This document shows positions 4,705 to 50,668 of a stretch of 52,044 nt of DNA, one piece after another (position 1 is the first letter of the stretch; each line of letters opens with the position of its first letter). The DNA lies in IMG/VR virus record IMGVR_UViG_3300028835_000313, positions 1 to 52,044 of that record; one strand, given 5' to 3'. The stretch is from a virus (Duplodnaviria > Caudoviricetes). The notes under the pieces were generated by a model that was given only the letters and a program-made list of their open reading frames with translations, was not told the origin of the DNA and did not search any database. A program made the position numbers and the translations under genes.

Positions 4705-5412
4705 ATGTCAGATTCATGCAATATTAAATTAGAGCCATATAAATACAGATGTTTATGCGGAGGGGTAGTTACTAGAGAAAATTGGAAAAATAAGGGATAT
4801 AAATTTAACAATGTAAGCGGATTTAAATGGATGCCTTGTAGTAAATGTGGTAAAAATTACACTAATCAAGATAGAGGCGTACATATTTATTACATTGAAG
4901 AAAATGAGTATTGGATTGATATGCTGGGATACAAAGGTGCTTATAAAATAAGTAATCACGGAAGAATTAAGTCTTTAAAGAGAAAAGACTCTATTGGGAG
5001 AAAGGTTAATGAAAAGATGATAAGTCAAAGGTTATCAAAAGAAGGATATTTTATGGTTAAACTCTACAATAAAAGATATCAAGTTCATCAATCAATGGTA
5101 GAATCATTTCTACAAACAAAAACAGATGGTAAAAATTTCGTCGTCAATCATATTGATCATAACAAGGAAAATAACCACTTATCCAATTTAGAAATCGTTA
5201 CCCCAAGACAAAATTCAAACAAAAAACATATAAAGCATTCTTCAAAATACACAGGAGTAACATGGAACAAGAACAAAAACAAATGGACTTCTAGGATATA
5301 TCTAAATGGAAAATTAAAACATTTAGGTCATTTCGATAACGAATATGAAGCTCATCTAGCATACGAAAAAGAATTAGAAGGAATCTGGATAGATATTAAC
5401 ACACTTGATTAA
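4705..5412 (+). CDS. NUMOD4-HNH-AP2 homing endonuclease with N-terminal Zn-finger extension
   Basis: W.DMLGYKGAYKISNHGRIKS; VNHIDHNKENNHLSNLE; SKYTGVTW...HLGHFDNEYEAH. Confidence 0.88.
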   Translation: MSDSCNIKLEPYKYRCLCGGVVTRENWKNKGYKFNNVSGFKWMPCSKCGKNYTNQDRGVHIYYIEENEYWIDMLGYKGAYKISNHGRIKSLKRKDSIGRKVNEKMISQRLSKEGYFMVKLYNKRYQVHQSMVESFLQTKTDGKNFVVNHIDHNKENNHLSNLEIVTPRQNSNKKHIKHSSKYTGVTWNKNKNKWTSRIYLNGKLKHLGHFDNEYEAHLAYEKELEGIWIDINTLD

Positions 5413-6216: not shown

Positions 6217-6262
6217 TTCCCATTAAAACTAAGTATCCAATTAAACACTTAAAATAAAACAA

Positions 6263-6481
6263 ATGAAAAACAAAGTCAAATCAATTACTGAAGCATTTTC
6301 AATGCAACCTGCAACATTAAGTATTGTGGACAAGCCAGCAAAATTCAATCCTAAAGATTCAATAAAAGAAATTAAATTGGAAATTGTAAATGGTGATCTT
6401 AATGTTTATACTGGATACAATTTTGATGGGAAAAGGCTTTTTATGTATAATGCCAAATCAGTAAATGTCCACTGTGTTTAA
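6263..6481 (+). CDS. Hypothetical protein
   Basis: ORF with A-rich leader. Confidence 0.6.
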   Translation: MKNKVKSITEAFSMQPATLSIVDKPAKFNPKDSIKEIKLEIVNGDLNVYTGYNFDGKRLFMYNAKSVNVHCV

Positions 6482-7528: not shown

Positions 7529-7671
7529 CTTACAGCAACAATTTATTAAACAAGTATCAATTGAAATTTTATTTAAAAACATAGTACAGATTAAGGGGAG
7601 AGAATTCGAAACGCTTGTTTAGAATTGTTGCTAACTCGAACCTTTCTCTGTGCGTTCATATCTTAGCAACT

Positions 7672-8831: not shown

Positions 8832-9485
8832 ATGGCAGAAAATAAAAAATCATTTATCGCCTACATAGATTGGAAGGAGACATTTGATTCTCTTCCTGAT
8901 GATAAAGCTGGTCAATTAATAAAGCACATATTTGCATACGTCAATGACGAAAATCCACAAACTGATGATATTTTAATTAATGCTGTATTCGCCAATATAC
9001 GGCAAACTCTTAAAAGAGATTTAAAGAAGTGGGAAAAACAACATCAACAAAGAGTTGAAGCCGGTAGAATAAGTGCTGAAAAAAGAAAGCATCCGTCAAC
9101 GACCATTGAACGACCGTTGAACGAAACTCAACAAGCGTCAACTGTTAGTGTTAATGATAGTGTAAGTGATACTGTAACTGTTAAAAAAAAGAGTATAGAT
9201 GACAGAAAATCGGATTTTAAAAAATCCTTACTCCCTCATTTAGAAAAATATGGCAAGGATATTCTTAATGAGTTTTATGCTTATTGGACAGAACATGGTG
9301 AAAGTGACCGAAAGATGAGATTTGAGAAACAGACTAGTTTTAGTATTACAAGAAGATTGTCCACTTGGAAAAAAAATGAAAATAAATTCAGTTCAAATGA
9401 AAAAAATAAATCAAATAACAGGGGAGGCTTTGAAAGTGATACCACGAAACGCACAATTGAGCAAATCCAAAACGGATTTGAATAA
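8832..9485 (+). CDS. Putative replication initiator (DUF6291-like N-terminus)
   Basis: KKSFIAYIDW...L.D..AGQLIK.IF.Y; low-complexity linker; FYAYW...RLSTW C-terminus. Confidence 0.7.
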   Translation: MAENKKSFIAYIDWKETFDSLPDDKAGQLIKHIFAYVNDENPQTDDILINAVFANIRQTLKRDLKKWEKQHQQRVEAGRISAEKRKHPSTTIERPLNETQQASTVSVNDSVSDTVTVKKKSIDDRKSDFKKSLLPHLEKYGKDILNEFYAYWTEHGESDRKMRFEKQTSFSITRRLSTWKKNENKFSSNEKNKSNNRGGFESDTTKRTIEQIQNGFE

Positions 9486-9942
9486 ACGTTCAGAAGCCGT
9501 TTTAAACCGTTTTGAGACAGCTAAAGATTTTGCGGTGCAATTTAACATGGACTATTGTGCTAATAAATATATCGCTATCAAGACGAATTACGAAGGGCTA
9601 ATGTCAAACACGGTTAAACTGAGAGAACTTTCAGATTGCTATGGTGATAAAAATATTTCCAATTGGATTGCATCTTGGTTAGTTGTTTTGTCCAGTAAAA
9701 TGGATTTCCAAATAAGCCCGGAACAGGCTGGAACCACTTCTGTTTTGATTTTAGAAGAATTATATATGATTAACATTTCTGAATTCTCTCTTTTCTTTAA
9801 ACGATTACTTAAAGGTGACTACGGGATATTCTATGGTAAGTTTAATATCCAAACGATATTGATGGCATGTAAGGAATTTAGGATGCAGAGAGGATTTGTA
9901 TTGTCGAAATTGAGTGAAGAGGATCAATTAAAACTATTGTGA
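9322..9942 (+). CDS. Replication-associated protein downstream of the initiator (start uncertain, possibly 9376 or 9397)
   Basis: Position; GDYGIFYGKF motif. Confidence 0.55.
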   Translation: MRNRLVLVLQEDCPLGKKMKINSVQMKKINQITGEALKVIPRNAQLSKSKTDLNKRSEAVLNRFETAKDFAVQFNMDYCANKYIAIKTNYEGLMSNTVKLRELSDCYGDKNISNWIASWLVVLSSKMDFQISPEQAGTTSVLILEELYMINISEFSLFFKRLLKGDYGIFYGKFNIQTILMACKEFRMQRGFVLSKLSEEDQLKLL

Positions 9943-10413: not shown

Positions 10414-10737
10414 ATGGATAAAAAAACAATAGAAATACTAAACTTTCTTAAAGAAAAATCAGTATTTGAAACGAGCGAAAACGGTAATAAGGGACATGTA
10501 ATTTGGAGTAATGAATTTTATAAAGTAGCACAGGAGTTAGTAAAATTATTTACTATACCTGATGTTAGCTTTTTTCTTAAAATTCCGCCTCCAAATTTAA
10601 AGCAAAAAAATATTTCAGAAAAGTCAGAAATAGCTAAGCAGCTAAAGAATAAAGGATATAGTATCAGAGAAATAATGAAAATACTTGGATATAAATCTCC
10701 CAGAAGCATTCAAGTGCTGTTAGCAAAGGAATTTTAA
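10414..10737 (+). CDS. Chimeric-looking protein with C-terminal HTH module
   Basis: GYSIREIMKILGYKSPRSIQVLL; junction GTT at 10564. Confidence 0.65.
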   Translation: MDKKTIEILNFLKEKSVFETSENGNKGHVIWSNEFYKVAQELVKLFTIPDVSFFLKIPPPNLKQKNISEKSEIAKQLKNKGYSIREIMKILGYKSPRSIQVLLAKEF

Positions 10738-10807
10738 TATTAAAGCTAACGGTTGGCTGTAAACGGAGCTTGAGAATTGTGAAAGAATTTTATAAAAAAG
10801 AAATATT

Positions 10808-10993
10808 ATGGAAGATGTAATTTATTATTTGATGGATGACCTTCATAAGAGCTATAGATTTAAGGCGAAATATGAAAAGAGAGATAACGTAAAAATGGTT
10901 GGTATCATATCAAAAAGGATTGATAATTTCGAGAAAGCTATTTCTATTTTAGAAAAGGCTGAGAACAATACACGAGTGGAGGTAATTCGATAA
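10808..10993 (+). CDS. Hypothetical protein
   Basis: ORF within the module array. Confidence 0.6.
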   Translation: MEDVIYYLMDDLHKSYRFKAKYEKRDNVKMVGIISKRIDNFEKAISILEKAENNTRVEVIR

Positions 10994-11066
10994 AACGATT
11001 TATATAAGTTGTCGAAATTTTGGCAGCACGCAGAGAATTTGATTTAACAACTAAAAATAGAATACA

Positions 11067-11348
11067 ATGAAAAACTTAATTAAAAGAATACATTTTGCAA
11101 TTTATATTTTGTTAGCGGTAGTTGTTTTTGGATGCAATAACAAACCAAAAAACAATCCTAAAATAGACCGCAGTAAATTATACAGAGAAGCATCCTATTA
11201 TAGCATAGAAGCATCGTGGTGCTATAAGCAAGCCACTATCGCTGTATTTGAGAGAAATAAACACAAAAAGGATTCATTAGTGTTAAAGGCGATTGAATAT
11301 AGTAAGAAAGCGGATAGTTTAACAAATGTAGCCAACAATTACCGCTAA
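11067..11348 (+). CDS. Putative lipoprotein
   Basis: Signal peptide with VFGC lipobox-like motif. Confidence 0.65.
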   Translation: MKNLIKRIHFAIYILLAVVVFGCNNKPKNNPKIDRSKLYREASYYSIEASWCYKQATIAVFERNKHKKDSLVLKAIEYSKKADSLTNVANNYR

Positions 11349-11393
11349 CGTAAATAATAAACACTGATTTTTAACGGATAAATAACTACGAAC

Positions 11394-11648
11394 ATGACAG
11401 AACAAGAAAAGATTGATAAAGTAGCCGATAAAGTAACTGAATACACAACAGCAACAATGCACAACCAAGGACTAATTAGTTACAATGATATACCAAAATT
11501 AGCAACTGAGATAGTTAAAAATTTGGGTTTATTTAGTGTTAGCAATAACGAAGTGGCGGTTTGCGAAACCTGTAAAACACCGCTTCAATTATTTAATGAT
11601 GGTAGACCATTTTGCCCTAGCTGCCTAAAGATTTATAAAGCAAACTGA
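11394..11648 (+). CDS. Protein with C-terminal CxxC...CxxC Zn-ribbon module
   Basis: CETC...CPSC after the GTT junction at 11538. Confidence 0.65.
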   Translation: MTEQEKIDKVADKVTEYTTATMHNQGLISYNDIPKLATEIVKNLGLFSVSNNEVAVCETCKTPLQLFNDGRPFCPSCLKIYKAN

Positions 11649-11692
11649 TTGCAACGTTCTGTGCATGAACTTTAATTAAAATTATTTGAGCG

Positions 11693-11896
11693 ATGGGAAA
11701 AAGAGTAGTTTATTTAAAAGAGTTCGATACATTCGGAGAAGAAGTTGATGTGAAGGTAACGTGCAATAATTGGAATGCCTTTCTGCGAGTGTGGGATATT
11801 GAAACTCTCCAATTAATAATGGATACACAAATTCAAAATGAAAATTATGAAGCAGCTGGACTTATTAAGGAACATATAGAACGGAAAGGTGCGTAG
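11693..11896 (+). CDS. Hypothetical protein with UVR-like C-terminus, enclosed in an inverted repeat
   Basis: ENYEAAGLIKE. Confidence 0.6.
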   Translation: MGKRVVYLKEFDTFGEEVDVKVTCNNWNAFLRVWDIETLQLIMDTQIQNENYEAAGLIKEHIERKGA

Positions 11897-12068
11897 GCAA
11901 TTTTAATTATTGTTTATTGCACTTTGTTGTAAATTGAGAAATTTTTACAAAAAGGTTACCAGTCGATAATATCTCTGTTCATAATTAAATGTATTAATTT
12001 ACAAACAAAGATAGTAAAAATTTATTTGTTTATAACTTGTTTATATCAACAACTAATTCATATCTATA

Positions 12069-14396: not shown

Positions 14397-14509
14397 TATT
14401 TTCCTCCTCCCGGTGATGGTGGTCTATGATCTCTTGTTCCAACTTCCGGTTCTTTTACTTTCTCTTCTTTTTTAGGCTTTTTAACCTCTTTTTCTTTTTT
14501 CTTGCTCAT
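14396..14509 (-). CDS. 37-aa Lys/Glu- and Pro-rich peptide (not in ORF track)
   Basis: MSKKKEKEVKKPKKEEKVKEPEVGTRDHRPPSPGGGK*; stop overlaps the next ATG. Confidence 0.5.
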   Translation of the reverse strand: MSKKKEKEVKKPKKEEKVKEPEVGTRDHRPPSPGGGK

Positions 14510-14742
14510 GATTCTAATTTTATGTTAAAGTTAATAAATTATTTTTTCAAGTCGTTAAATTTCTTCTCCGATTTCATCCGGGAATATTAATTCATTGTCT
14601 GATACCGTGTACCACATCTTTTCTTCCACATCTGGAATAGTTCGAAGTTCAGCTTCAATCCATTCGTCCCAATGTTTTACTTTATATTTTCCGTCTGGTA
14701 ATGTCATTTGAATATGTTTTTAATAAATTTCAAAGGTTTAAA

Positions 14743-37926: not shown

Positions 37927-39169
37927 TATACAATAGTTTTAGTTTCTGATAGTTCTATTTTTCATTCTCAAATTTACGAAATGCCAATATTGATAAAATA
38001 TCAAACTTTAAAAAAGACCATGGTTGTTTTAGTCTTTTTGCTTCCTCTGACATTCGTTTATATTGCACTCCTTGTTGATAATTAATAGAGCTTCGTTTTT
38101 TAGGAGTCATTAGAGATTCTTTACATTCTCCTATTCCTTGATAGTTATGATTTGAACAGTTCATAGTACAAAGTTATTATCTGTTTCGTTAAAATCAAAA
38201 TAGAAGCCGTTTGAAGTGTTATGATCCTTCAATAAACCAGCATAATATCCTTTCATTCTTTTATTTGCATCGCACATAGATTTTCTCCAAGATTCTGCAT
38301 GTTTTCTCATCTCGTTTCAGTAAAATAGTGGTTAATATAAATCGGTTGCCCTATTATGTTTACTCCTATGTAGTTAGTTAGTTGCATCCATTTAATTTTT
38401 TAATAATAATATTTAATTTTTCTTCATCCCGAATCAGCCTCATTTGTTTACCTATTCCAATGTAATGAATAGTTAATTTACGTTCTTCTTCAGTAAGAAT
38501 ATCTTTTATGTTGAAACCATTAATTGCTCTGTATGATGCAATTGCTGCCTTTAAATATCCAAGCGATGTTCGTTGATCCTGATTATTTTTGCCTTCATGC
38601 TTCTCTATATAATCGAGAGCCATTTTAGCAATTTTCTTTTTTAGTTTTTTCATTTTATTTAGTTTTAGTTCCACATATAACCAGGCAATTCATCAACACG
38701 AAAAATTACTTCCATGAAAAACAGAACTTCCATTTTTACCCTCAAAATTATCTCGTCACTATCGAAGATAATATATCCAAATTCCTGTATGTAAGTTTCT
38801 TTTGTCATTTCTTTAGAATATCGCAGGGTGTAGGGACTATCCTGTTGCATTTATTGTCCCGATTCTATGCTTAATGTACACTCCACATAGCGCAACATTT
38901 ACACCCTGCCATACAATTTGCTCCATCTCAGGGAATCGAACCCCATCCTTAACACGGTCAAAAATAAAATTAAGCACTATTTTTATTTCTTTCGATATTA
39001 AGGTAGTCCACTTTTCAGTATACCGTCATATACTTAATTGGTTACTATATGGAATATTTATATTTTAATGAACTTTTTAAAACAAAGTGCGGCTGATTAG
39101 TGATTACCGCACTTTGTAAATCAACTAAATCTAAACTTAACTTATGAAAAAACCTATTACAAATATAGT

Positions 39170-39448
39170 TTATTTATTCTTATAAAACTCAACCTCAGAT
39201 TCTAATCGTTTGATTTCTTCGTTTTTAACGCTTAGTTCAACCTGGTGAATCCTTTCTGTCACTTCTTCTTTAAACTGGTCGTATTCTCTGTGCATTTCGC
39301 TCTGCCGGTCGATCCATTTAGTTTGACGTTGATCTATTACCGGAACTTTCTTTACTTCGACTATTAGCCAAATAATAGCCGATGCCAAAGCAATGAGCAT
39401 GGAAGGAGTTGCAAACTTGGAAACCAATGTATTGACTTTCTGTTCCAT
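39170..39448 (-). CDS. Single-TM coiled-coil protein
   Basis: TM helix and heptad C-terminus; own promoter element at 39453 and a hairpin at 39081-39116. Confidence 0.6.
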   Translation of the reverse strand: MEQKVNTLVSKFATPSMLIALASAIIWLIVEVKKVPVIDQRQTKWIDRQSEMHREYDQFKEEVTERIHQVELSVKNEEIKRLESEVEFYKNK

Positions 39449-39468: not shown

Positions 39469-39915
39469 TTACAATTCTACATTTTGAAGTTCAAGTTCTC
39501 CGTTGGTTGCTTCGGCTAATGTATGTAATGTTGGATTATCGTCTTTCCAATAAGAGAGCTGATAATTAATACCAAATTCAACATTAATCGTTCTATCATC
39601 TTCTAAATACTCACTCTCTTTAAATATAACTTTCCTTTCAGCTTCTTGCCATAATTCTAAATCGTAAATATAATTTTCTGTAAGCAAGTACTTTGGCAAC
39701 TTATGTGACGTTAAATCATCTTCATTTGGTTTCTCCAATTCATTAACAAACATTTCCTTTTTAATAGGCTCTTTAAGGAATTCATTATAACGATGAATCA
39801 CCTTCAAATTATTTACAAAAAATTCATCTATTGAATATCCATCATAGGGATCAAATTCTAATGATTTCACAAAGTCAACAAATTGAGACAGTTTATAAAG
39901 TTTTTCTATTTTCAT
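39469..39915 (-). CDS. Hypothetical protein
   Basis: ORF. Confidence 0.6.
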   Translation of the reverse strand: MKIEKLYKLSQFVDFVKSLEFDPYDGYSIDEFFVNNLKVIHRYNEFLKEPIKKEMFVNELEKPNEDDLTSHKLPKYLLTENYIYDLELWQEAERKVIFKESEYLEDDRTINVEFGINYQLSYWKDDNPTLHTLAEATNGELELQNVEL

Positions 39916-42800: not shown

Positions 42801-43123
42801 ATCATTTTTCTAAAGTTAATCTTCTAATCCAATACTGGCCCCGATATAGATGAGGCAATTTCCTACGCTTCAAATAATACCATGAAAATCCATTATTTTC
42901 ACAACAATGTTTTAAGTTCCTGTATTTATACTCTTTCCCATTCCCATCGGTTAATATGATATCAGATTGTCTTTTGCTCATCCATACAAAGGTATATATA
43001 TTATTCTGAATATTTACACCTTTATGACAATTATTTTATGTTTTTAAACATACCCTATCCTAATGCTAATTTGAATTGATTTATTTAGTTTTGGGGCATA
43101 CTAAAAATTTAACATTTAAAATT

Positions 43124-43561
43124 ATGAAACACTTATTTCACTTAATTACAATCTTTTTTATCATGCATGAAATATATTGGATAATAAGTCCTAAAAAGCA
43201 TGTTAAAGCAACAAAGAAAATACGTAAATTAAACAAGCAGCACAAAGGTAAGAAATGGGATGAATACACCGAAGATTATAAGGATCTTTTTATCAAAAAA
43301 GGATTACCTTCATTGTTATTTTTTGTATGGATGATAGTAGGTGTATTGTCATTTAATTGGATACTATTCTTAGCTATGCTAATTTTTAACGTAGGATTTA
43401 TTAATTTAATTTCAAAACCTTTTAGATATAATAATATCTACGTTGCTATACACTGGATTAATTCTATAATTGGATTTATGTTTGGTGTATTTGTTTTAAT
43501 TAATTCATATCATTTAAAGATAGATACTTTTGAATTTGTAAAACAACTATTAGGATTTTAA
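43124..43561 (+). CDS. Multi-pass membrane protein at the divergence point
   Basis: Four hydrophobic segments; ATG at 43124. Confidence 0.65.
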   Translation: MKHLFHLITIFFIMHEIYWIISPKKHVKATKKIRKLNKQHKGKKWDEYTEDYKDLFIKKGLPSLLFFVWMIVGVLSFNWILFLAMLIFNVGFINLISKPFRYNNIYVAIHWINSIIGFMFGVFVLINSYHLKIDTFEFVKQLLGF

Positions 43562-44528: not shown

Positions 44529-45086
44529 ATGATTACAGTTATTAAAATTACAGACAAGAAAATCTATAATAAAAATGTAGTAAGCGTTGATACATCAATG
44601 TTAGAATCTTTTAATGGTAAGATAATTATCAAAATAAAAGATAAAGATCCATTAATCATTGACAAAGAACACAATCCAGGTGAGTATAAAAAGAAATATG
44701 GATTTACTCTCATAATAGTAAAAACAATCTTTGAAGAATTAAATGATAACAAAATATGTTATTCGGTATGTGTTTCAAAAACTGCATTGAGATTTGGCAG
44801 GGGTGTAGGTTCTTCAAATTATACAGATAGGGACTATTTTATAGTTGCATGTAGTACCGAGGAATACTTAAAAAAAGAAACTGGTAAAGGTGATAGATTT
44901 AAGTTTAATTTCGTCAAAAATGAAAATGAATTAAACGCAATTGAATATACATTAAATGACAATGAAATTGATATATTCAAATCTATTCAGAATGATTTTG
45001 TAAAAGTACTTCATAATTCAGAAGGTAGGGTTTATGAGCTTAAAGGCAACTCATTTAAGGAATATTACAAAAGAGTTTCTAGGTAG
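44529..45086 (+). CDS. Hypothetical protein
   Basis: ORF flanked by a TTTCTAGGTA repeat. Confidence 0.65.
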   Translation: MITVIKITDKKIYNKNVVSVDTSMLESFNGKIIIKIKDKDPLIIDKEHNPGEYKKKYGFTLIIVKTIFEELNDNKICYSVCVSKTALRFGRGVGSSNYTDRDYFIVACSTEEYLKKETGKGDRFKFNFVKNENELNAIEYTLNDNEIDIFKSIQNDFVKVLHNSEGRVYELKGNSFKEYYKRVSR

Positions 45087-45145
45087 TAGTAAATAACTTA
45101 AATATTTAATTCCCAAACGTGTTAAACAATTTAAAAACTTGCAAA

Positions 45146-45529
45146 ATGATAACAATAGATAATTTTTGGGATTACACTTTCGCAGTATGGGAGGAATTCG
45201 ATTTTGATCCAGAAAATACTGCGTGTAAGTTAATAGGCGAGAGCAAAGATGGTTCTAAATATTACACTGACAATGTAGTTGGCACTAAAGATATTAGTAT
45301 ATATCGCGTTTCAGACCATTGGGGCGGCGGTATAGGAACTTGTAATTGGTATTTGAATGGATACGAACCATGTAATAGTTATTCATTTAAAGAAGAGCAT
45401 GAGGGCGCGCAGTTTGTAGGAATAATTGGTCTAAGCCAATTTCAAGAAATGAATTTTAAAAATTGGTGGCATAAGGATAAAAAAGATGAAGATATTAGGG
45501 AATGGGAATATACTTGTAAGGATGATTAA
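45146..45529 (+). CDS. Hypothetical protein
   Basis: YRVSDHWG...CNW motif. Confidence 0.65.
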   Translation: MITIDNFWDYTFAVWEEFDFDPENTACKLIGESKDGSKYYTDNVVGTKDISIYRVSDHWGGGIGTCNWYLNGYEPCNSYSFKEEHEGAQFVGIIGLSQFQEMNFKNWWHKDKKDEDIREWEYTCKDD

Positions 45530-45935
45530 CATCTCACAGTTTCCTGCAAGCTCTGTGGGATTACTAACCGGCTATCGTAACTGAAGCCGGTTTTCGCAGT
45601 AGGACACTAAAGCTTTTTGAAATGAAAACAAACCCATTTGTTGACCTGGATTTATCCGGTTGGTTATTAGACGAAGAATCCTTAAAAAGGATTGAAGAAA
45701 TAAGATGGATTCATAGGAGACTTAAATTTTTAGATAATATTAAGATTGGAAGTAATGAAAAATCAAAAGCGTGAACCAGTTACTAAACGACATTTAATCT
45801 TAGCAATTATACTATTTCTGTTTTTAGTAATAGGAATACCTGTTATTGTAAAGTTGATTAATTGGTTGTTTCCGGTTATTTAACGGTCTGTGCATGTTTA
45901 GTTGCATAAGTTACAAATAAAATAAAATAATAAAA

Positions 45936-46166
45936 ATGGATTTAGAGGAAAAGTATAAAGAAGAAACTGGCTTCAATGTTGGTAAAATACACGACATTGG
46001 AACTACGTATTATAGCAATGACTATGTAGAATGGTTGGAAAAGCAATTAAATATGCACTTTGTTAGCAATAGCGAAGCGAAGTGTTGCGAACCTGCTCCA
46101 AAATTTGCATTAGGAACGATATGTCCAATTTGCAATCGTCCATGTAGAATAGTGAATCTAACGTGA
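45936..46166 (+). CDS. Chimeric-looking small protein with Cys-rich C-module
   Basis: GTT junction at 46062; CC...CPIC..PC. Confidence 0.6.
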   Translation: MDLEEKYKEETGFNVGKIHDIGTTYYSNDYVEWLEKQLNMHFVSNSEAKCCEPAPKFALGTICPICNRPCRIVNLT

Positions 46167-46756
46167 ACAACATTATTACTAACTTTAAAGATATAAGTCT
46201 ACGGGGTGACTTTAATAGAAATGGCAGATTTAAAAGACTTTAAGGGTAAAAGAGAAGATAATTATACAGAAGATTATCCAGAAATATACGATAAAAAATG
46301 TGGTATTGAATATTGTATAAAAAAGGATACTTGTAACCAAATACAAATACCAGGAATATTGAAAGAAGAAAAAGTAAAATGTATAAACTATAAAACTGTA
46401 TTAGATGGCTAAATTATCAGATGCCCAAAATAAGGCAATATTTTACGAAATGATGTATGATATTGAAAAACGTAAAAACAAAAAGCTATTAATAATTATA
46501 ATAAGCACGATTGTTTTATGTGTGATGGCTTTTTTATTTTATTGTATATAACTTAAATGTAATGACACTTTTTGTTATACAAAACATTTAAATACTCATG
46601 GAATATCTAATACTAATATTCTGCATTATCGCAGTAGGAGCATTTCTAACCTTTATTTTCTTCCAATGGTTGAAGATTAAGGAAAATTCCAATATTAGAT
46701 CAGAAGATAATGACGGTTTGGCTAAGTTTTGAAGTTTAATGGATAAATAAAATAAA

Positions 46757-47020
46757 ATGATAACAGAATATAAAATAGTAGAAATACTTAAAAAAAATAC
46801 ACAGGAGTATATTAGTGATGGTGAAAACGTAGTATTAACAATAAATTCAGACAATTTAAAAAATCTTAAACAGGACTTAGTTAAACTTTTAAATTTAGCT
46901 ATTGTTACCCAGCATAGCGAACTGTTAAGCGATTTTGCAGACCATTGGAATAAGAATAGTTATGAATTTATGAACGACTTTCACATAAGCGAATATCTAA
47001 AATCGCTTAATTGTGGGTAA
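46757..47020 (+). CDS. Chimeric-looking small protein
   Basis: GTT junction at 46904. Confidence 0.6.
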   Translation: MITEYKIVEILKKNTQEYISDGENVVLTINSDNLKNLKQDLVKLLNLAIVTQHSELLSDFADHWNKNSYEFMNDFHISEYLKSLNCG

Positions 47021-47284
47021 CTATGTTTTATAGCATGTCCGTAAGTGTTTTACGACATATAAATAGTTAGCTTTTATTACTTACTTTGAAATATCAAAAA
47101 CAAAATAATGACTTATCACAGAACATTTAACGAATCAACAGTAGAGTCTTATAAAGAGCCGGAATCAACAGATTGCTCGGAATGTGAGAGCGACATAACT
47201 ACTTATATTAATTGTGTAGGTGGTATTGAAATTCGGAAATGCCATGATTGTGATAATTATTTTGAAGTAGAGGAGGAATAAATT

Positions 47285-47464
47285 ATGAGATATACAATAA
47301 CATTAGACTTTTACGCTTGGGCTGATTCTGACGAAGAAATTAAAAAGCAAGCAAATGATTTAGTTAAAGCAATGAGGGAAAAAGAAGATAACCAGGCAAA
47401 TGTTTTGGAAATACACGAAACACCATTTGCTTCCCTATCTGTACGTAAATTGAATATTAATTAA
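47285..47464 (+). CDS. 59-aa hypothetical protein (not in ORF track)
   Basis: MRYTITLDFYAWADSDEE... Confidence 0.5.
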   Translation: MRYTITLDFYAWADSDEEIKKQANDLVKAMREKEDNQANVLEIHETPFASLSVRKLNIN

Positions 47465-47475
47465 ACTTTATAATT

Positions 47476-47982
47476 ATGGAAAACAAAACTCATTACAGAA
47501 AGGTATTTAAGAGCGATCATTTAGGGGTTGCCGACTTGGAAGATTTAATCGAAGAAAAAAAACGATTAGTATTCACAATCAAACACGTTAAACAAGAATT
47601 TGGCGTAACTGTTGCAGGTCGCAAAGGCGATCATAACATTGCATATTTCAAAGAACCTATCAAGCCATTAGTATTAAATGCGACCAATTCAAAGGTAATG
47701 AAATCTTTTAACAATGGAAGCCCTTTTGTTGAAGATTGGTCTAATACAGTTGTTGAATTATACATTGATCCAAATGTAAAAATGAAAGGTGATATTGTTG
47801 GTGGTGTAAGGATTAAACCAAGTAAACCAACACTTGCAAAACCAAACCTAATACCTGAGAATAAAAAGGTTTGGGATGCTGCAATAGTTTATTTAAAAGG
47901 CGAAGGTACGATTGACAGTATTAAAGGCAAATATAGTATTTCAGCAACCAACGAACAAAAGCTAAAAGATGCCACAATATAG
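47476..47982 (+). CDS. Putative ssDNA-binding/annealing partner of the exonuclease
   Basis: KPLVLNATN...W....VELY...G.RI pattern; overlaps the YqaJ gene. Confidence 0.55.
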   Translation: MENKTHYRKVFKSDHLGVADLEDLIEEKKRLVFTIKHVKQEFGVTVAGRKGDHNIAYFKEPIKPLVLNATNSKVMKSFNNGSPFVEDWSNTVVELYIDPNVKMKGDIVGGVRIKPSKPTLAKPNLIPENKKVWDAAIVYLKGEGTIDSIKGKYSISATNEQKLKDATI

Positions 47983-48580
47983 ATTCGACATAAAACAAAA
48001 TTCGGATGAGTGGTTTGCTTTAAAAGTTGGTAAATTCAGTGCTTCAACTTGCGCAGAGCTTTTGATGAATAAAAAAACAAAAGGCTACACAGGATTAATC
48101 GATCGAATAGTTGAGGAAAGAATGACCGGGAACCCAACCGAAAGTAAAACATTTAAAGGTAATCAATTTACTGAACGAGGTCATGAATTAGAGCCGGTAG
48201 CCAGGGATGATTACGAAATGCGAACATTCCGGGATATTGCTATAATTGGCGTTATTGAATTGGATGATTGGGTTCTTTGCTCTCCAGATGGATTGATAGG
48301 AGAAGATGGATTGTGGCAAGCTAAATGCCCTATATTCAATACTCAGAAAAGTTATTTGAAAAGCCAGAAAGTACCTACAAACTATTACAAGCAAATGCAA
48401 TTTGAATTGTTTGTTTCTGGCCGTGAGTATAATGTGTTTAACTCTTATCATCCATATTTACCAGCGGTTGATATTGTTGTTAAACGCGATGAGGAAATGA
48501 TAACTATAATCCAGCAACGGATAAAAGAAGCAAAGAAAGAAATTTTGAATGAAATCAAATTACTTAAAAGTTTTGCGTAA
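47969..48580 (+). CDS. YqaJ/lambda-exonuclease-family recombination nuclease
   Basis: QNSDEWFALKVGKFSAS, RGHELEP.AR, SPDGL, QAKCP, YYKQMQF. Confidence 0.9.
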   Translation: MPQYRFDIKQNSDEWFALKVGKFSASTCAELLMNKKTKGYTGLIDRIVEERMTGNPTESKTFKGNQFTERGHELEPVARDDYEMRTFRDIAIIGVIELDDWVLCSPDGLIGEDGLWQAKCPIFNTQKSYLKSQKVPTNYYKQMQFELFVSGREYNVFNSYHPYLPAVDIVVKRDEEMITIIQQRIKEAKKEILNEIKLLKSFA

Positions 48581-48604: not shown

Positions 48605-48717
48605 TATATGATGTTTCAGTTAAGAATAAATAATGTATTTTCATTTCTTTCTCTAACAGAGGTTAGGGCTGGAACATCATATATAAACCCGTTCAGATTA
48701 ATTTCTGGATGGGTTTT
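48605..48717 (+). ncRNA. Promoter-hairpin-terminator unit 2 (candidate sRNA or attenuator)
   Basis: TATATGATGTTTCAG...CTGGAACATCATATA stem, then AAACCCGTTCAGA/TCTGGATGGGTTT. Confidence 0.5.
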
Positions 48718-48933
48718 GTTATATAGCGGTGTTCAGATGGCTCTACCGTTCCGAAAGGATAAAAAAAGTGGCGTAATGAAATTTAACTGGAGAAATTGCA
48801 TACCCAAAAAATCCAGTTCTCGTAAAAGTGTAGTTGATTGTATTAAAGCTACCACCTTACAATTAGGTGCAAGGGGCGAAACTATCGAGTAATTACAGGT
48901 TTATTCAGTTAAACATCAATTGCATAGGATGTA

Positions 48934-49916: not shown

Positions 49917-50107
49917 ATAAAATGGCACGATACAAACTAACAAAGAATACTTACAAGCGACAATCAGCAATAGATATTCAACGTGTAGATGATCGTTTGC
50001 GATTATTTAATATATTTGTATTGCAGTCGAGTCTAATTAACTCGTTCAATGAGGTTACACATTCCTGCTGCATTACTTCTAATAATGTGTATAAAAATGT
50101 AAATATT

Positions 50108-50668
50108 ATGCAAGAAAAAGAAATTTGGAAAGATATCGAAGGCTACAAGGAGTATTATCAAGTAAGCGATCATGGGAACGTTAAGAGATTAGCGAGATTT
50201 AGTAGTAATAATCATTTTCTAAAAGAACGAATATTAAAACCGCATAATAACTATGGATATTTGCGTGTCGGATTACACAAAAACCATAATAAGAAACTCT
50301 TTCTTGTGCATAGATTAGTATTAATCGCATTTAAGAAAAACCCATACAATAAGACACAATGCAATCATATCGATGGCATTAAATCTAATAATTATATAGA
50401 CAATTTAGAATGGAGTACATGTGCTGAAAATAATCAACATGCTTATGATACTGGATTAAATAAAGGATCTAGATTTGGTAAATTCGGAAAAGACAATCCA
50501 AATAGTAAACCACTATTTCAAATAAATAAATTCAATAACGAAATTATTAAGGAGTGGGATTCGGTGATAGATGTAGAAAGAAAATTGGGTTATCATAGTG
50601 GATGCATAGCTAGTGCGTGTAGGGGTGAATACAAAACTGCCTCGGGTTTTAAATGGCGATATAAATAA
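50108..50668 (+). CDS. NUMOD4-HNH-NUMOD1 homing endonuclease
   Basis: EIWKDIEGYKEYYQVSDHGNVK, VHRLV, NHIDGIKSNN...NLEW, ACRG...GFKW; likely ATG 50108, with the frame open from 49922. Confidence 0.9.
   Translation: MQEKEIWKDIEGYKEYYQVSDHGNVKRLARFSSNNHFLKERILKPHNNYGYLRVGLHKNHNKKLFLVHRLVLIAFKKNPYNKTQCNHIDGIKSNNYIDNLEWSTCAENNQHAYDTGLNKGSRFGKFGKDNPNSKPLFQINKFNNEIIKEWDSVIDVERKLGYHSGCIASACRGEYKTASGFKWRYK

Follow-up and report, generated by a model that had tools for sequence, protein, structure and literature searches.

The early region of a tailed phage genome (IMG/VR record IMGVR_UViG_3300028835_000313, Caudoviricetes) contains a series of DNA hairpins which are bounded by the short motifs TAAC and GTTA and located at the boundaries of small genes. 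These elements, which probably represent attC-like recombination sites of an integron-like cassette array, and their relatives in other phages and in bacteria are the focus of this report. The analysed stretch of 52,044 bp, referred to as the window, carries direct terminal repeats and constitutes a complete phage record. The products of its plus-strand genes, at 43.0-52.0 kb and 0-12.3 kb, include a YqaJ exonuclease, RusA-like resolvases, HNH endonucleases, a DnaA-C-like protein, a methylase, Ant and a helicase, and the structural genes occupy the minus strand from 12.3 to 43.0 kb.

The arms of the hairpins described first sit within a run of small plus-strand open reading frames (ORFs) between 45622 and 47464, ORFans for which searches of Pfam and PHROG gave no match. 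A blastn search with positions 45000-48000 against the phage collection returned zero matches. Relatives of a neighbouring 168-aa protein are found at 12 loci, where a single small ORF of the region (47108-47281) has a homologue; the small-ORF region is hypervariable. The start codons in the window are preceded by A-rich leaders without a Shine-Dalgarno sequence, which, judged from the sequence, suggests a host of Bacteroidota-like type.

Paired arms in the small-gene region

The initial annotation had proposed that 45881..47021 holds a second array with strong nested arms, made up of four pairs: 45881-45905 with 46043-46065 (pair 1), 46062-46087 with 46168-46183 (pair 2), 46711-46739 with 46881-46907 (pair 3) and 46904-46935 with 47000-47021 (pair 4). 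Arms are indeed present at all of these positions. Their significance was assessed by comparing the best duplex energy with that of 300 shuffles of the downstream 430 nt. Pair 1 forms a 16-bp helix with exactly two G·T pairs, as described, which TAAC/GTTA closes on the far side of a 5x3 internal loop; an energy as good as its -23.5 kcal/mol was obtained in 0/300 shuffles, and in 0/200 in a separate run. Pair 3 (-21.2 kcal/mol) was likewise matched by none of 300 shuffles, and pair 4 (8 + 11 bp, -23.1 kcal/mol) by two. Pair 2, in contrast, does not hold up as a helix, as its -7.3 kcal/mol was equalled by 103/300 shuffles.

The four pairs are consecutive and share their anchors rather than being mainly nested; nesting is found in one additional outer stem around hairpin A3 (Table 1), with one mismatch in 15 pairs and the 5x3 spacer geometry, which the annotation did not list. 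This stem comes from a relaxed motif scan of the window that was not above its controls (18 and 20 real matches versus 30 and 34 in reversed sequence) and that served as a lead only, so that its status is uncertain. The proposed likeness of the first arm to an arm at 11652 was borne out, the 16-mer being found twice at up to 3 mismatches versus 0.19 expected. The arms of pairs 1 and 3, like the 11652 arm, are parts of a single conserved structured element, and "second array" is an apt description, the other cluster being located at 10560-11930. Across both clusters, two kinds of pairing alternate: a hairpin TAAC...GTTA (pairs 1 and 3, 11652/11929) and a helix GTTA...TAAC (pairs 2 and 4, 11111/11348, 10564/10750). 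Pairs 1 and 3 are hairpins, and pairs 2 and 4 are the complementarity of the end of one hairpin with the start of the next one, a signature of cassette ends that is discussed below. The gene-boundary position of the elements, the start codons in their loops and their recurrence in other phages and in bacterial cassette arrays had been overlooked.

Table 1. Elements mapped in the window. The strict motif is defined in the next section; R1 is a covariance model built from ten phage copies only.
Feature	Position	Strand	Anchors and arms	Genes and scores
Hairpin A1 (pair 1)	45881..46065	+	TAAC 45881-45884, spacer GGTCT, 5' arm 45890-45905, 3' arm 46043-46058, spacer TTT, GTTA 46062-46065	TAA of TAAC is the stop of ORF 45746-45883; loop contains the ATG of ORF 45936-46166; matches the strict motif, G·T at bp 7 and 12
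Cassette-end boxes, unit 1 (pair 2)	46062..46183	+	GTTAGCAAT... (46062-) complementary to ...ATTACTAAC (46175-46183)	Bracket the Zn-ribbon part of ORF 45936-46166
Stub element	46549..46578	+	TAAC...GTTA, upper stem almost nil	TAA doubles as the stop codon of ORF 46405-46551; unfiltered R1 score 11.9 bits, E 0.75, suggestive only
Outer nested stem enclosing A3	46647..46962	+	TAAC-cttta-TTTTCTTCCAATGGT (46647-46670) with ACCATTGGAATAAGA-ata-GTTA (46941-46962)	
Hairpin A3 (pair 3)	46711..46907	+	TGAC 46711-46714, spacer GGTTT, 5' arm 46720-46739, 3' arm 46881-46900, spacer ATT, GTTA 46904-46907	Loop contains the ATG of ORF 46757-47020; matches the strict motif
Cassette-end boxes, unit 4 (pair 4)	46904..47021	+	GTTACCCA (46904-46911) with TGGGTAAC (47014-47021); inner 11-bp helix 46925-46935 / 47000-47010	TAA in TGGGTAAC is the stop of ORF 46757-47020
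Short degenerate element	47018..47069	+	TAAC 47018-47021, stem 47035-47044 / 47050-47058, GTTA 47066-47069	Upstream of ORF 47108-47281; R1 with filters off 9.6 bits, E 2.3, not significant
First-array element	10991..11117	+	Ends GTTAGC at 11111	Begins at the stop of ORF 10808-10993; R1 29.0 bits, E 0.001
First-array cassette-end boxes	11111..11348	+	GTTAGCGGTAGTTGT (11111-11125) with ACAATTACCGCTAAC (11334-11348), 17 contiguous pairs	TAA is the stop of ORF 11067-11348
First-array element	11344..11544	+	Ends in GTTAGCAATAACGAAG	Loop has the start of ORF 11394-11648; R1 28.7 bits, E 0.0011
"11652 arm" element	11652..11929	+	Anchors CAAC/GTTG; compared with A1, T-A is replaced by C-G with compensation	Encloses the whole ORF 11693-11896; -20.2 kcal/mol, 1/200 shuffles as good

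One alternative is that these arms reflect chance complementarity in AT-rich DNA, and several measurements of the region as a whole are in line with it. Similar repeat density in structural genes or in shuffled sequence had been named in the initial annotation as grounds for dismissing the array, and a generic excess is in fact not supported: 32-mers for which a partner of -22 kcal/mol or lower exists no more than 450 nt away make up 2.0% of 3837 windows in late genes and 2.3% of 2608 windows in early genes, and contiguous helices of at least 14 pairs number 15 versus 11.8 ± 3.9 in shuffles. Helices of at least 16 pairs are the only length class in excess (5 versus 1.4 ± 1.2, with a maximum of 4 across 40 shuffles). 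Folds with DNA parameters, one of the checks that had been recommended, show unremarkable regions (z = +0.28 for 45875-46075 and -1.98 for 46640-47075). The stem of A1 forms in the fold of the plus strand and is absent from that of the minus strand. What goes beyond chance is thus a specific anchored motif and not repeat density; the finding fails on density, yet it survives through the specific architecture which the elements share. At fixed offsets from the anchors, six of ten cognate arm pairs reach -18.5 to -25.6 kcal/mol, compared with means of -6.7 and -9.1 for non-cognate combinations (sd about 3). Chance is refuted for pairs 1, 3 and 4, which were equalled by just 0-2 of 300 shuffles, and it stands for pair 2 as a helix. 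The recurrence of the motif above its reversed controls, the covarying stems and the matches in other genomes described below likewise argue against coincidence, to which only a minimal probability is assigned as an account of the elements.

The plus-strand region holds further candidate long-range pairs of -22 to -27 kcal/mol that are unanchored, with no TAAC/GTTA: 6217-6248 / 6402-6433, which brackets the start of ORF 6263-6481, 574-602 / 738-772, 9281-9295 / 9684-9698 and 7533-7556 / 7612-7633. Among the longest contiguous helices, with G·T allowed, are 43256-43273 / 43481-43498 (18 pairs, inside ORF 43076-43561) and 48605-48621 / 48667-48683 (17 pairs, a local hairpin at the start of ORF 48608-48892), the latter tied with two other 17-pair helices. 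The replication and recombination module also carries genes that resemble free-standing homing endonucleases, namely two NUMOD4 + HNH_3 endonuclease genes (4705-5412 and 49922-50668, one with an extra AP2 domain) and a gene for a small HNH protein (1163-1450).

Recurrence of the element in phage genomes

The strict form of the motif consists of pairing anchors, spacers of 3-8 and 1-5 nt, and a stem of 6 bp, G·T, 4 bp, G·T and 5 bp with at most 2 mismatches in 17. It occurs 38 times on both strands of 1.64 Mb of loci, compared with 6 times in the same sequences reversed, and 31 non-redundant matches form the base of the element counts given here. Their common plan opens with TAAC-G, a spacer of 3-8 nt and the stem; a loop that measures 45-400 nt comes next, and the mirror arm, NNT and GTTA complete the element. 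The G·T pairs at bp 7 and 12 are demanded by the filter; the pattern of two G·T and no A·C is also present in many elements of an unbiased alignment. Several features outside the filter are conserved, including G after AAC (27/31), T before GTTA (29/31) and bp 4-6, which are TA, AT and TA/AT in 29/31, 28/31 and 31/31 elements, respectively. All 31 have a 5' spacer of 3-8 nt and a 3' spacer of 2-3 nt. In ten aligned copies TAAC and GTT are invariant, and A follows GTT in nine of them. Phage copies other than A1 and A3 are 84-317 nt long.

The stems vary in sequence and retain their pairing. In ten short copies, 95.4% of cells are paired versus 74.0 ± 2.1 in shuffles (0/500), 13 of the 22 stem pairs show changes on both sides, and pairing falls to 29-50% when the partner is slid by 1-3 columns. 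These copies were selected by a filter that itself demands pairing, and the count of real versus reversed matches is the fairer statistic. The two strands are not equivalent: of 80 candidates, 59 fold better on the strand that carries TAACG and 19 on its complement, several of these 19 being mirror images of the same elements. Searches with R1 yield 55 matches in 34 phage loci, as well as two in the first array of the window and five (E < 0.01) in Polaribacter phage P12002L (KR136259, at 38032-38092, 38876-38938, 39119-39247, 39512-39712 and 14500-14628). Rfam gave no match in the window and ten phage loci at the gathering score, in one further locus (L127) at E <= 1, or in four bacterial arrays at E <= 0.1.

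An exact 15-nt arm pattern gave 61 scattered single matches in viral contigs, which were judged to be chance given the size of the collection. The exact 16-nt junction GTTAGCAATANCGAAG was found in 95 stretches, about the chance estimate; among 69 distinct junction matches, the ten with the best upstream pairing (z -2.9 to -10.4) are all small-ORF phage loci with a different stem sequence in each, and the remainder (z -2.0 to +1.7) include many in unrelated larger genes and about eight in small-ORF loci. Free duplex scans anchored on TAACGG that included GC-rich unrelated loci did not distinguish real from reversed sequence (127/697 versus 185/953 at or below -20 kcal/mol), and a separation emerged after restriction to small-ORF-junction loci and then with the strict motif.

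The phage elements hold a consistent position relative to genes. In 19/31, the ORF begins with a start codon inside the loop and continues across the 3' arm; in 5/31 the ORF is wholly inside the loop, in another 5/31 it starts at most 80 nt after GTTA, and for 2/31 no ORF was called, so that a start codon lies inside the loop in 24/31 elements overall. The stop codon of the upstream ORF is found within -45 to +30 nt of TAAC in 27/31 and exactly at its TAA in 12/31, and the next start codon follows 9-60 nt beyond the 5' arm (one at 249 nt) in 19/31. This arrangement raises the possibility of an mRNA structure, that is, gene-boundary "punctuation" on a polycistronic early transcript at which RNase III or a different factor specific for double strands would process or stabilise the RNA, or which would act in translational control. 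The early mRNA of T7 offers a precedent, as its RNase III sites are sense-strand hairpins, present at almost all boundaries between early genes, in which an asymmetric internal loop separates a lower from an upper stem. In line with such a role, the better-folding, G·U-bearing strand in phages is the sense strand, the stop and start codons are placed as described, and the invariant G·U pairs, the conserved asymmetric internal loop and the helix of at least 22 bp resemble RNA helices that are recognised by proteins. Cleavage of the 3' arm, however, would cut the reading frame in those 19 elements whose ORF reads through it, and the Rfam searches matched no family. The observations in bacteria that bear most heavily on this reading are given in the next section.

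The junction between element and gene is also visible in the encoded proteins. An apparent protein motif, "VSNNE", was rejected as such, since it is the conserved box GTTAGCAATAACGAA, always translated in one frame. For the related box GTTAGCGGTAG, the frame differs between two proteins (window 11111 and L076 912), which places the conservation at the nucleic-acid level. Small proteins in which a variable N-terminal module is linked through a "VSN(N/S)E" junction to a tail that is rich in Cys and Zn-ribbon-like were noted for window ORFs 45936-46166 and 11394-11648, for 786-1061 of another viral contig, L076, and for L081 (minus strand). The junction of the small proteins corresponds to the GTTAGCAAT box in frame, and many tails at other loci end in QTDC, followed by TAACGG. 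The N-module of ORF 45936-46166 (77% identity, aa 1-48) is joined to another C-terminal part in L076, the fusion being at the GTTAGC box, and in L081 it ends right after the junction, with no tail.

Such exchange of modules could also be ascribed to ordinary homologous recombination that needs no site-specific enzyme, with the boundary sequences serving as homology patches that shuffle small genes as in T4-type phages. In those phages, promoter early stem-loops (PeSLs) combine a sigma-70 promoter with a local terminator hairpin, are conserved in sequence and act via homologous recombination (PMC2839356, PMC4122927). Like PeSLs, the elements described here are structured motifs that recur where small, variable early genes adjoin, and modular shuffling is the role proposed for them; the phage moreover encodes the YqaJ exonuclease and RusA-like resolvases, and the distribution of the N-module among the window, L076 and L081 would be accounted for. 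They differ from PeSLs in lacking a promoter or terminator signal, in their covarying stems and in holding coding sequence in their loops. Sigma-70-like promoters number 10 versus 11.6 ± 3.3 in shuffles and terminators 1 versus 0.5, in a scan that excludes promoters of the Bacteroidota type. Furthermore, the stems are variable yet compensated, which homology-driven exchange neither needs nor preserves, and recombinase genes adjoin related arrays elsewhere. PeSL-like linkers are regarded as a quite improbable explanation.

Cassette ends and related arrays in bacteria

In integrons, crossover at G|TT leaves the first bases of a cassette complementary to the R'' box of its own (next) attC site. 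A comparable signature is found in the present arrays. The 7 nt after GTTA and the 7 nt before the next TAAC are paired at a mean of 3.1/7 positions, with 5-6/7 in most truly adjacent pairs, compared with 1.6/7 for the element's own flank and a control of 1.85 ± 1.24. In the window, four of five adjacent pairs reach 5-6/7, and the fifth (11538/11652) pairs only with a one-base deletion. The second-array instances are the pairs 2 and 4 of the initial annotation. The boxes of unit 1 show 5/7 Watson-Crick pairs beyond GTTA/TAAC versus 1/7 with A1's own 5' flank, and those of unit 4 (-21.6 kcal/mol) and of 11111..11348 (-25.6 kcal/mol) stand well below the non-cognate mean of -9.1 (sd 3.0).

Although R1 was built from phage copies, it also identifies elements in bacteria, with matches at 17, 14 and 34 places in metagenome-assembled genomes (MAGs) of Bacteroidales, Flavobacteriales and Ignavibacteriales, respectively (Fibrobacterota-Chlorobiota-Bacteroidota, FCB, group), and in 34 of 121 sampled genomes of the phylum, presumably Bacteroidota. 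The bacterial copies are all 128-133 nt long, and the best matches in other genomes reach E 1e-10. They form same-strand arrays with a spacing of 0.6-6 kb, and 17 of 21 elements are located at most 40 nt beyond the stop codon of a gene on the opposite strand. The array genes encode unrelated accessory functions, such as Fic, RlaP, leucine-rich repeat (LRR) and ABC ATPase proteins. By analogy, this layout is that of integron cassettes, and the R1 orientation corresponds to the attC bottom strand, with G after AAC. The cassette-end complementarity in bacteria comprises about 10 bp and spans 1-6 kb, a distance that points to a history of recombination rather than to RNA pairing.

At least two of these arrays adjoin a recombinase gene, with 28-150 candidates scored per genome. 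On one contig (G078:C44), 13 one-strand R1 sites extend over about 23 kb, and the genes occupy the opposite strand. A divergent gene, 517 nt beyond the final site, encodes a 280-aa tyrosine recombinase, whose best family is NF040815 ("site-specific tyrosine recombinase/integron integrase", 219 bits); its score against TIGR02249 is 203 bits. A second array (G091:C9) is laid out in the same way, with a recombinase adjoining. One related phage record (G004) carries R1 sites and, about 1.4 kb beyond the last of them, a recombinase gene. Its 268-aa product shares 38% identity (E 3e-54) with the bacterial enzyme; NF040815 is again the best family, and the score against TIGR02249 is 130 bits.

Other bacterial loci provide additional observations. 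A Bacteroidales array (L188, G006:C10:264000-283000) contains defence- or toxin-like genes, encoding a Fic/DOC protein, two RlaP-type nucleotidyltransferases, an LRR protein and an AbiEii-like ABC ATPase, and five to six genes (an Rrf2 regulator, a methyltransferase and others) are reverse-oriented between two of its sites. In one Ignavibacteriales MAG (G008), contigs C135, C266, C293, C200, C33, C13, C201 and C204 each have an R1 element in their first 220 nt. The assembly thus seems to be interrupted by the repeats, and the array itself is probably far longer than any of the contigs indicates. Tyrosine recombinases above the TIGR02249 cut-off are encoded in two sampled genomes of the same phylum, at G058:C3:3628-4569 and G074:C130:7370-8308 (445 and 394 bits), and the 10 kb to each side of an IntI-like gene of 375 aa on G007:C43 are free of R1 sites.

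The bacterial arrays change the standing of the mRNA reading, which had been the first best explanation and was demoted once they turned up. In 17 of 21 bacterial elements the element is antisense to its gene, so that the stable strand is not the mRNA, and complementarity of about 10 bp over 1-6 kb is implausible as RNA pairing. The comparison with T7 is weakened in the same way, as the T7 hairpins are local and outside coding sequence, whereas the present element is shared with bacterial arrays in which it is antisense to genes. An mRNA structure is thus unlikely as the primary explanation; a sense-strand role at the RNA level could nevertheless exist alongside a recombination site.

The bacterial copies, at about 130 nt and with terminal inverted repeats, also resemble MITEs (miniature transposable elements with inverted repeats) in being common to hosts and viruses, and a census reports that many Bacteroidota MITEs also occur in viral sequences (PMC11602168). 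A flanking direct repeat of 3-4 nt, however, is found in only one of 18 bacterial copies and one of at least 5 nt in none, meaning that target-site duplications are lacking. The arms covary rather than being conserved in sequence, and the copies form ordered same-strand arrays directly after genes, with a flank complementarity that is offset by one unit. The identification as MITEs is accordingly held to be very improbable.

Comparison with attC sites and implications

Taken together, the arms are probably attC-like, structure-defined sites, and the window array is best read as an integron-like cassette array of a Bacteroidota-specific type in the early region of a phage. It is called CALIN-like (cluster of attC sites lacking an integron integrase) because no recombinase is encoded in the window phage. 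This reading is based on the structure itself, its conservation and covariation, the asymmetry of the strands, the homologous sites in bacterial arrays beside recombinase genes and the complementarity of cassette ends.

The likeness to attC extends to several details. The hairpin is defined by structure, with AAC...GTT at its base and G after AAC on the better-folding strand; an unpaired spacer (GGTCT / TTT in A1) is followed by a variable stem and a loop of variable length; the arrays consist of unrelated small genes, their cassette-end complementarity is offset by one unit, and no integrase is encoded in the phage. Conservation of attC is described as limited to AAC/GTT and the G after AAC on the bottom strand (PMC2727003). 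Clusters of attC sites without an integrase have been reported in 17 phage genomes, including virulent phages and Polaribacter phage P12002L, of which one predicted attC was recombined by IntI1 (Qi et al. 2023, PMC9892861). In the IntegronFinder 2.0 survey, one complete integron is reported for Bacteroidetes, where integrons are nearly absent (PMC9024848). In our literature search, no description was found of an integron-like system with an Xer-like recombinase in Bacteroidota phages.

There are also clear differences. Classical attC sites are about 57-141 bp long, with terminal structures from 3 nt to a branched loop; they lie 3' of the cassette gene, which is on the top strand while the bottom strand folds, and two or three extrahelical bases on one arm set the choice of strand. 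Such extrahelical bases are absent from the present elements, in which two invariant G·T positions (A·C on the other strand) give the strand asymmetry. The orientation of gene and site that is typical of attC is seen in the bacterial copies (17/21). It is not seen in the window and the remaining phages; in these, the strand that folds is the sense strand of the genes, and the site lies before or around the start of the gene and not after the gene. Phage loops reach 400 nt and hold start codons and N-terminal modules. The recombinases beside related arrays are compact (268-290 aa) and Xer/IntI-like, and they fall under the integron-integrase cut-off.

A number of observations weigh against an attC-like identity. 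At 185 and 197 nt, with loops of 137 and 141 nt, A1 and A3 exceed the classical attC length, and the long-loop sites of the window may be inactive relics. R1 without filters gave no significant score for either of them, so that their membership rests on the strict pattern; the fold energies of the whole regions are ordinary. The 17-bp upper stems are ungapped and without extrahelical bases (T·T at bp 11 in 6/31), a role at the RNA level would explain the G·U pairs equally well, and the phage genes lie on the folding strand, opposite to classical cassettes. In an alignment of the window with the related phage L064, the homology breakpoint is at the ORF start and not at the anchor, a position that is uninformative about the anchors themselves. 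No tyrosine recombinase is encoded in the complete window genome, the top Phage_integrase score being 11.5 bits, under the cut-off; the array recombinases, at 203 and 130 bits, are below the TIGR02249 cut-off of 265 bits; and no R1 sites were seen beside the bona fide IntI genes of G058 and G074 among the 28 candidates scored per genome. The P12002L site recombined by IntI1 may differ from the five R1 matches in that phage.

That recombination takes place at the phage sites, by which enzyme and with which cuts, is what we infer from these comparisons. In the proposed mechanism, the site would be a hairpin that has the short helix (T)AAC/GTT(A) at its base. An unpaired spacer would lead to a stem that varies in sequence, is compensated and includes two invariant G·T pairs, and the loop could be of any length. 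A compact Xer/IntI-like recombinase, of the family that adjoins arrays in Bacteroidota chromosomes and is found in one related phage, would fold the G·T-bearing strand and exchange strands at AAC. One unit would extend from TAA|C to the next TAA|C and comprise the hairpin with leader and start codon, the rest of the small gene and its stop codon, and the gene start, often with the N-terminal module, would ride inside the hairpin loop.

A broader proposal is put forward more tentatively, as a possibility that we rate at somewhat less than even. Bacteroidota and their phages may share an undescribed form of integron-like shuffling in which a compact Xer/IntI-like recombinase acts on hairpins whose two fixed G·T / A·C positions, instead of extrahelical bases, determine the choice of strand. 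In phages the system would be turned "inside out", with the coding strand folding, the unit cut after TAA, and leader, start codon and a swappable N-module carried in the loop. A single site would then serve as recombination point, gene boundary and mRNA structure, and protein modules might be shuffled in frame, as suggested by the conserved GTTAGCAAT box, which is read as Val-Ser-Asn.

If this is true, the in-frame reading of the linker and the location of gene starts in the loop would represent a new coexistence of a recombination site with coding sequence. A model derived from phage sites matches 34 of 121 genomes of a phylum for which surveys list hardly any integrons. Anti-defence functions are often to be expected among early phage genes, and the mechanism would explain how small, fast-changing early genes are gained, lost and recombined in many Bacteroidota phages, and would tie the turnover of these genes to the cassette arrays of host chromosomes.

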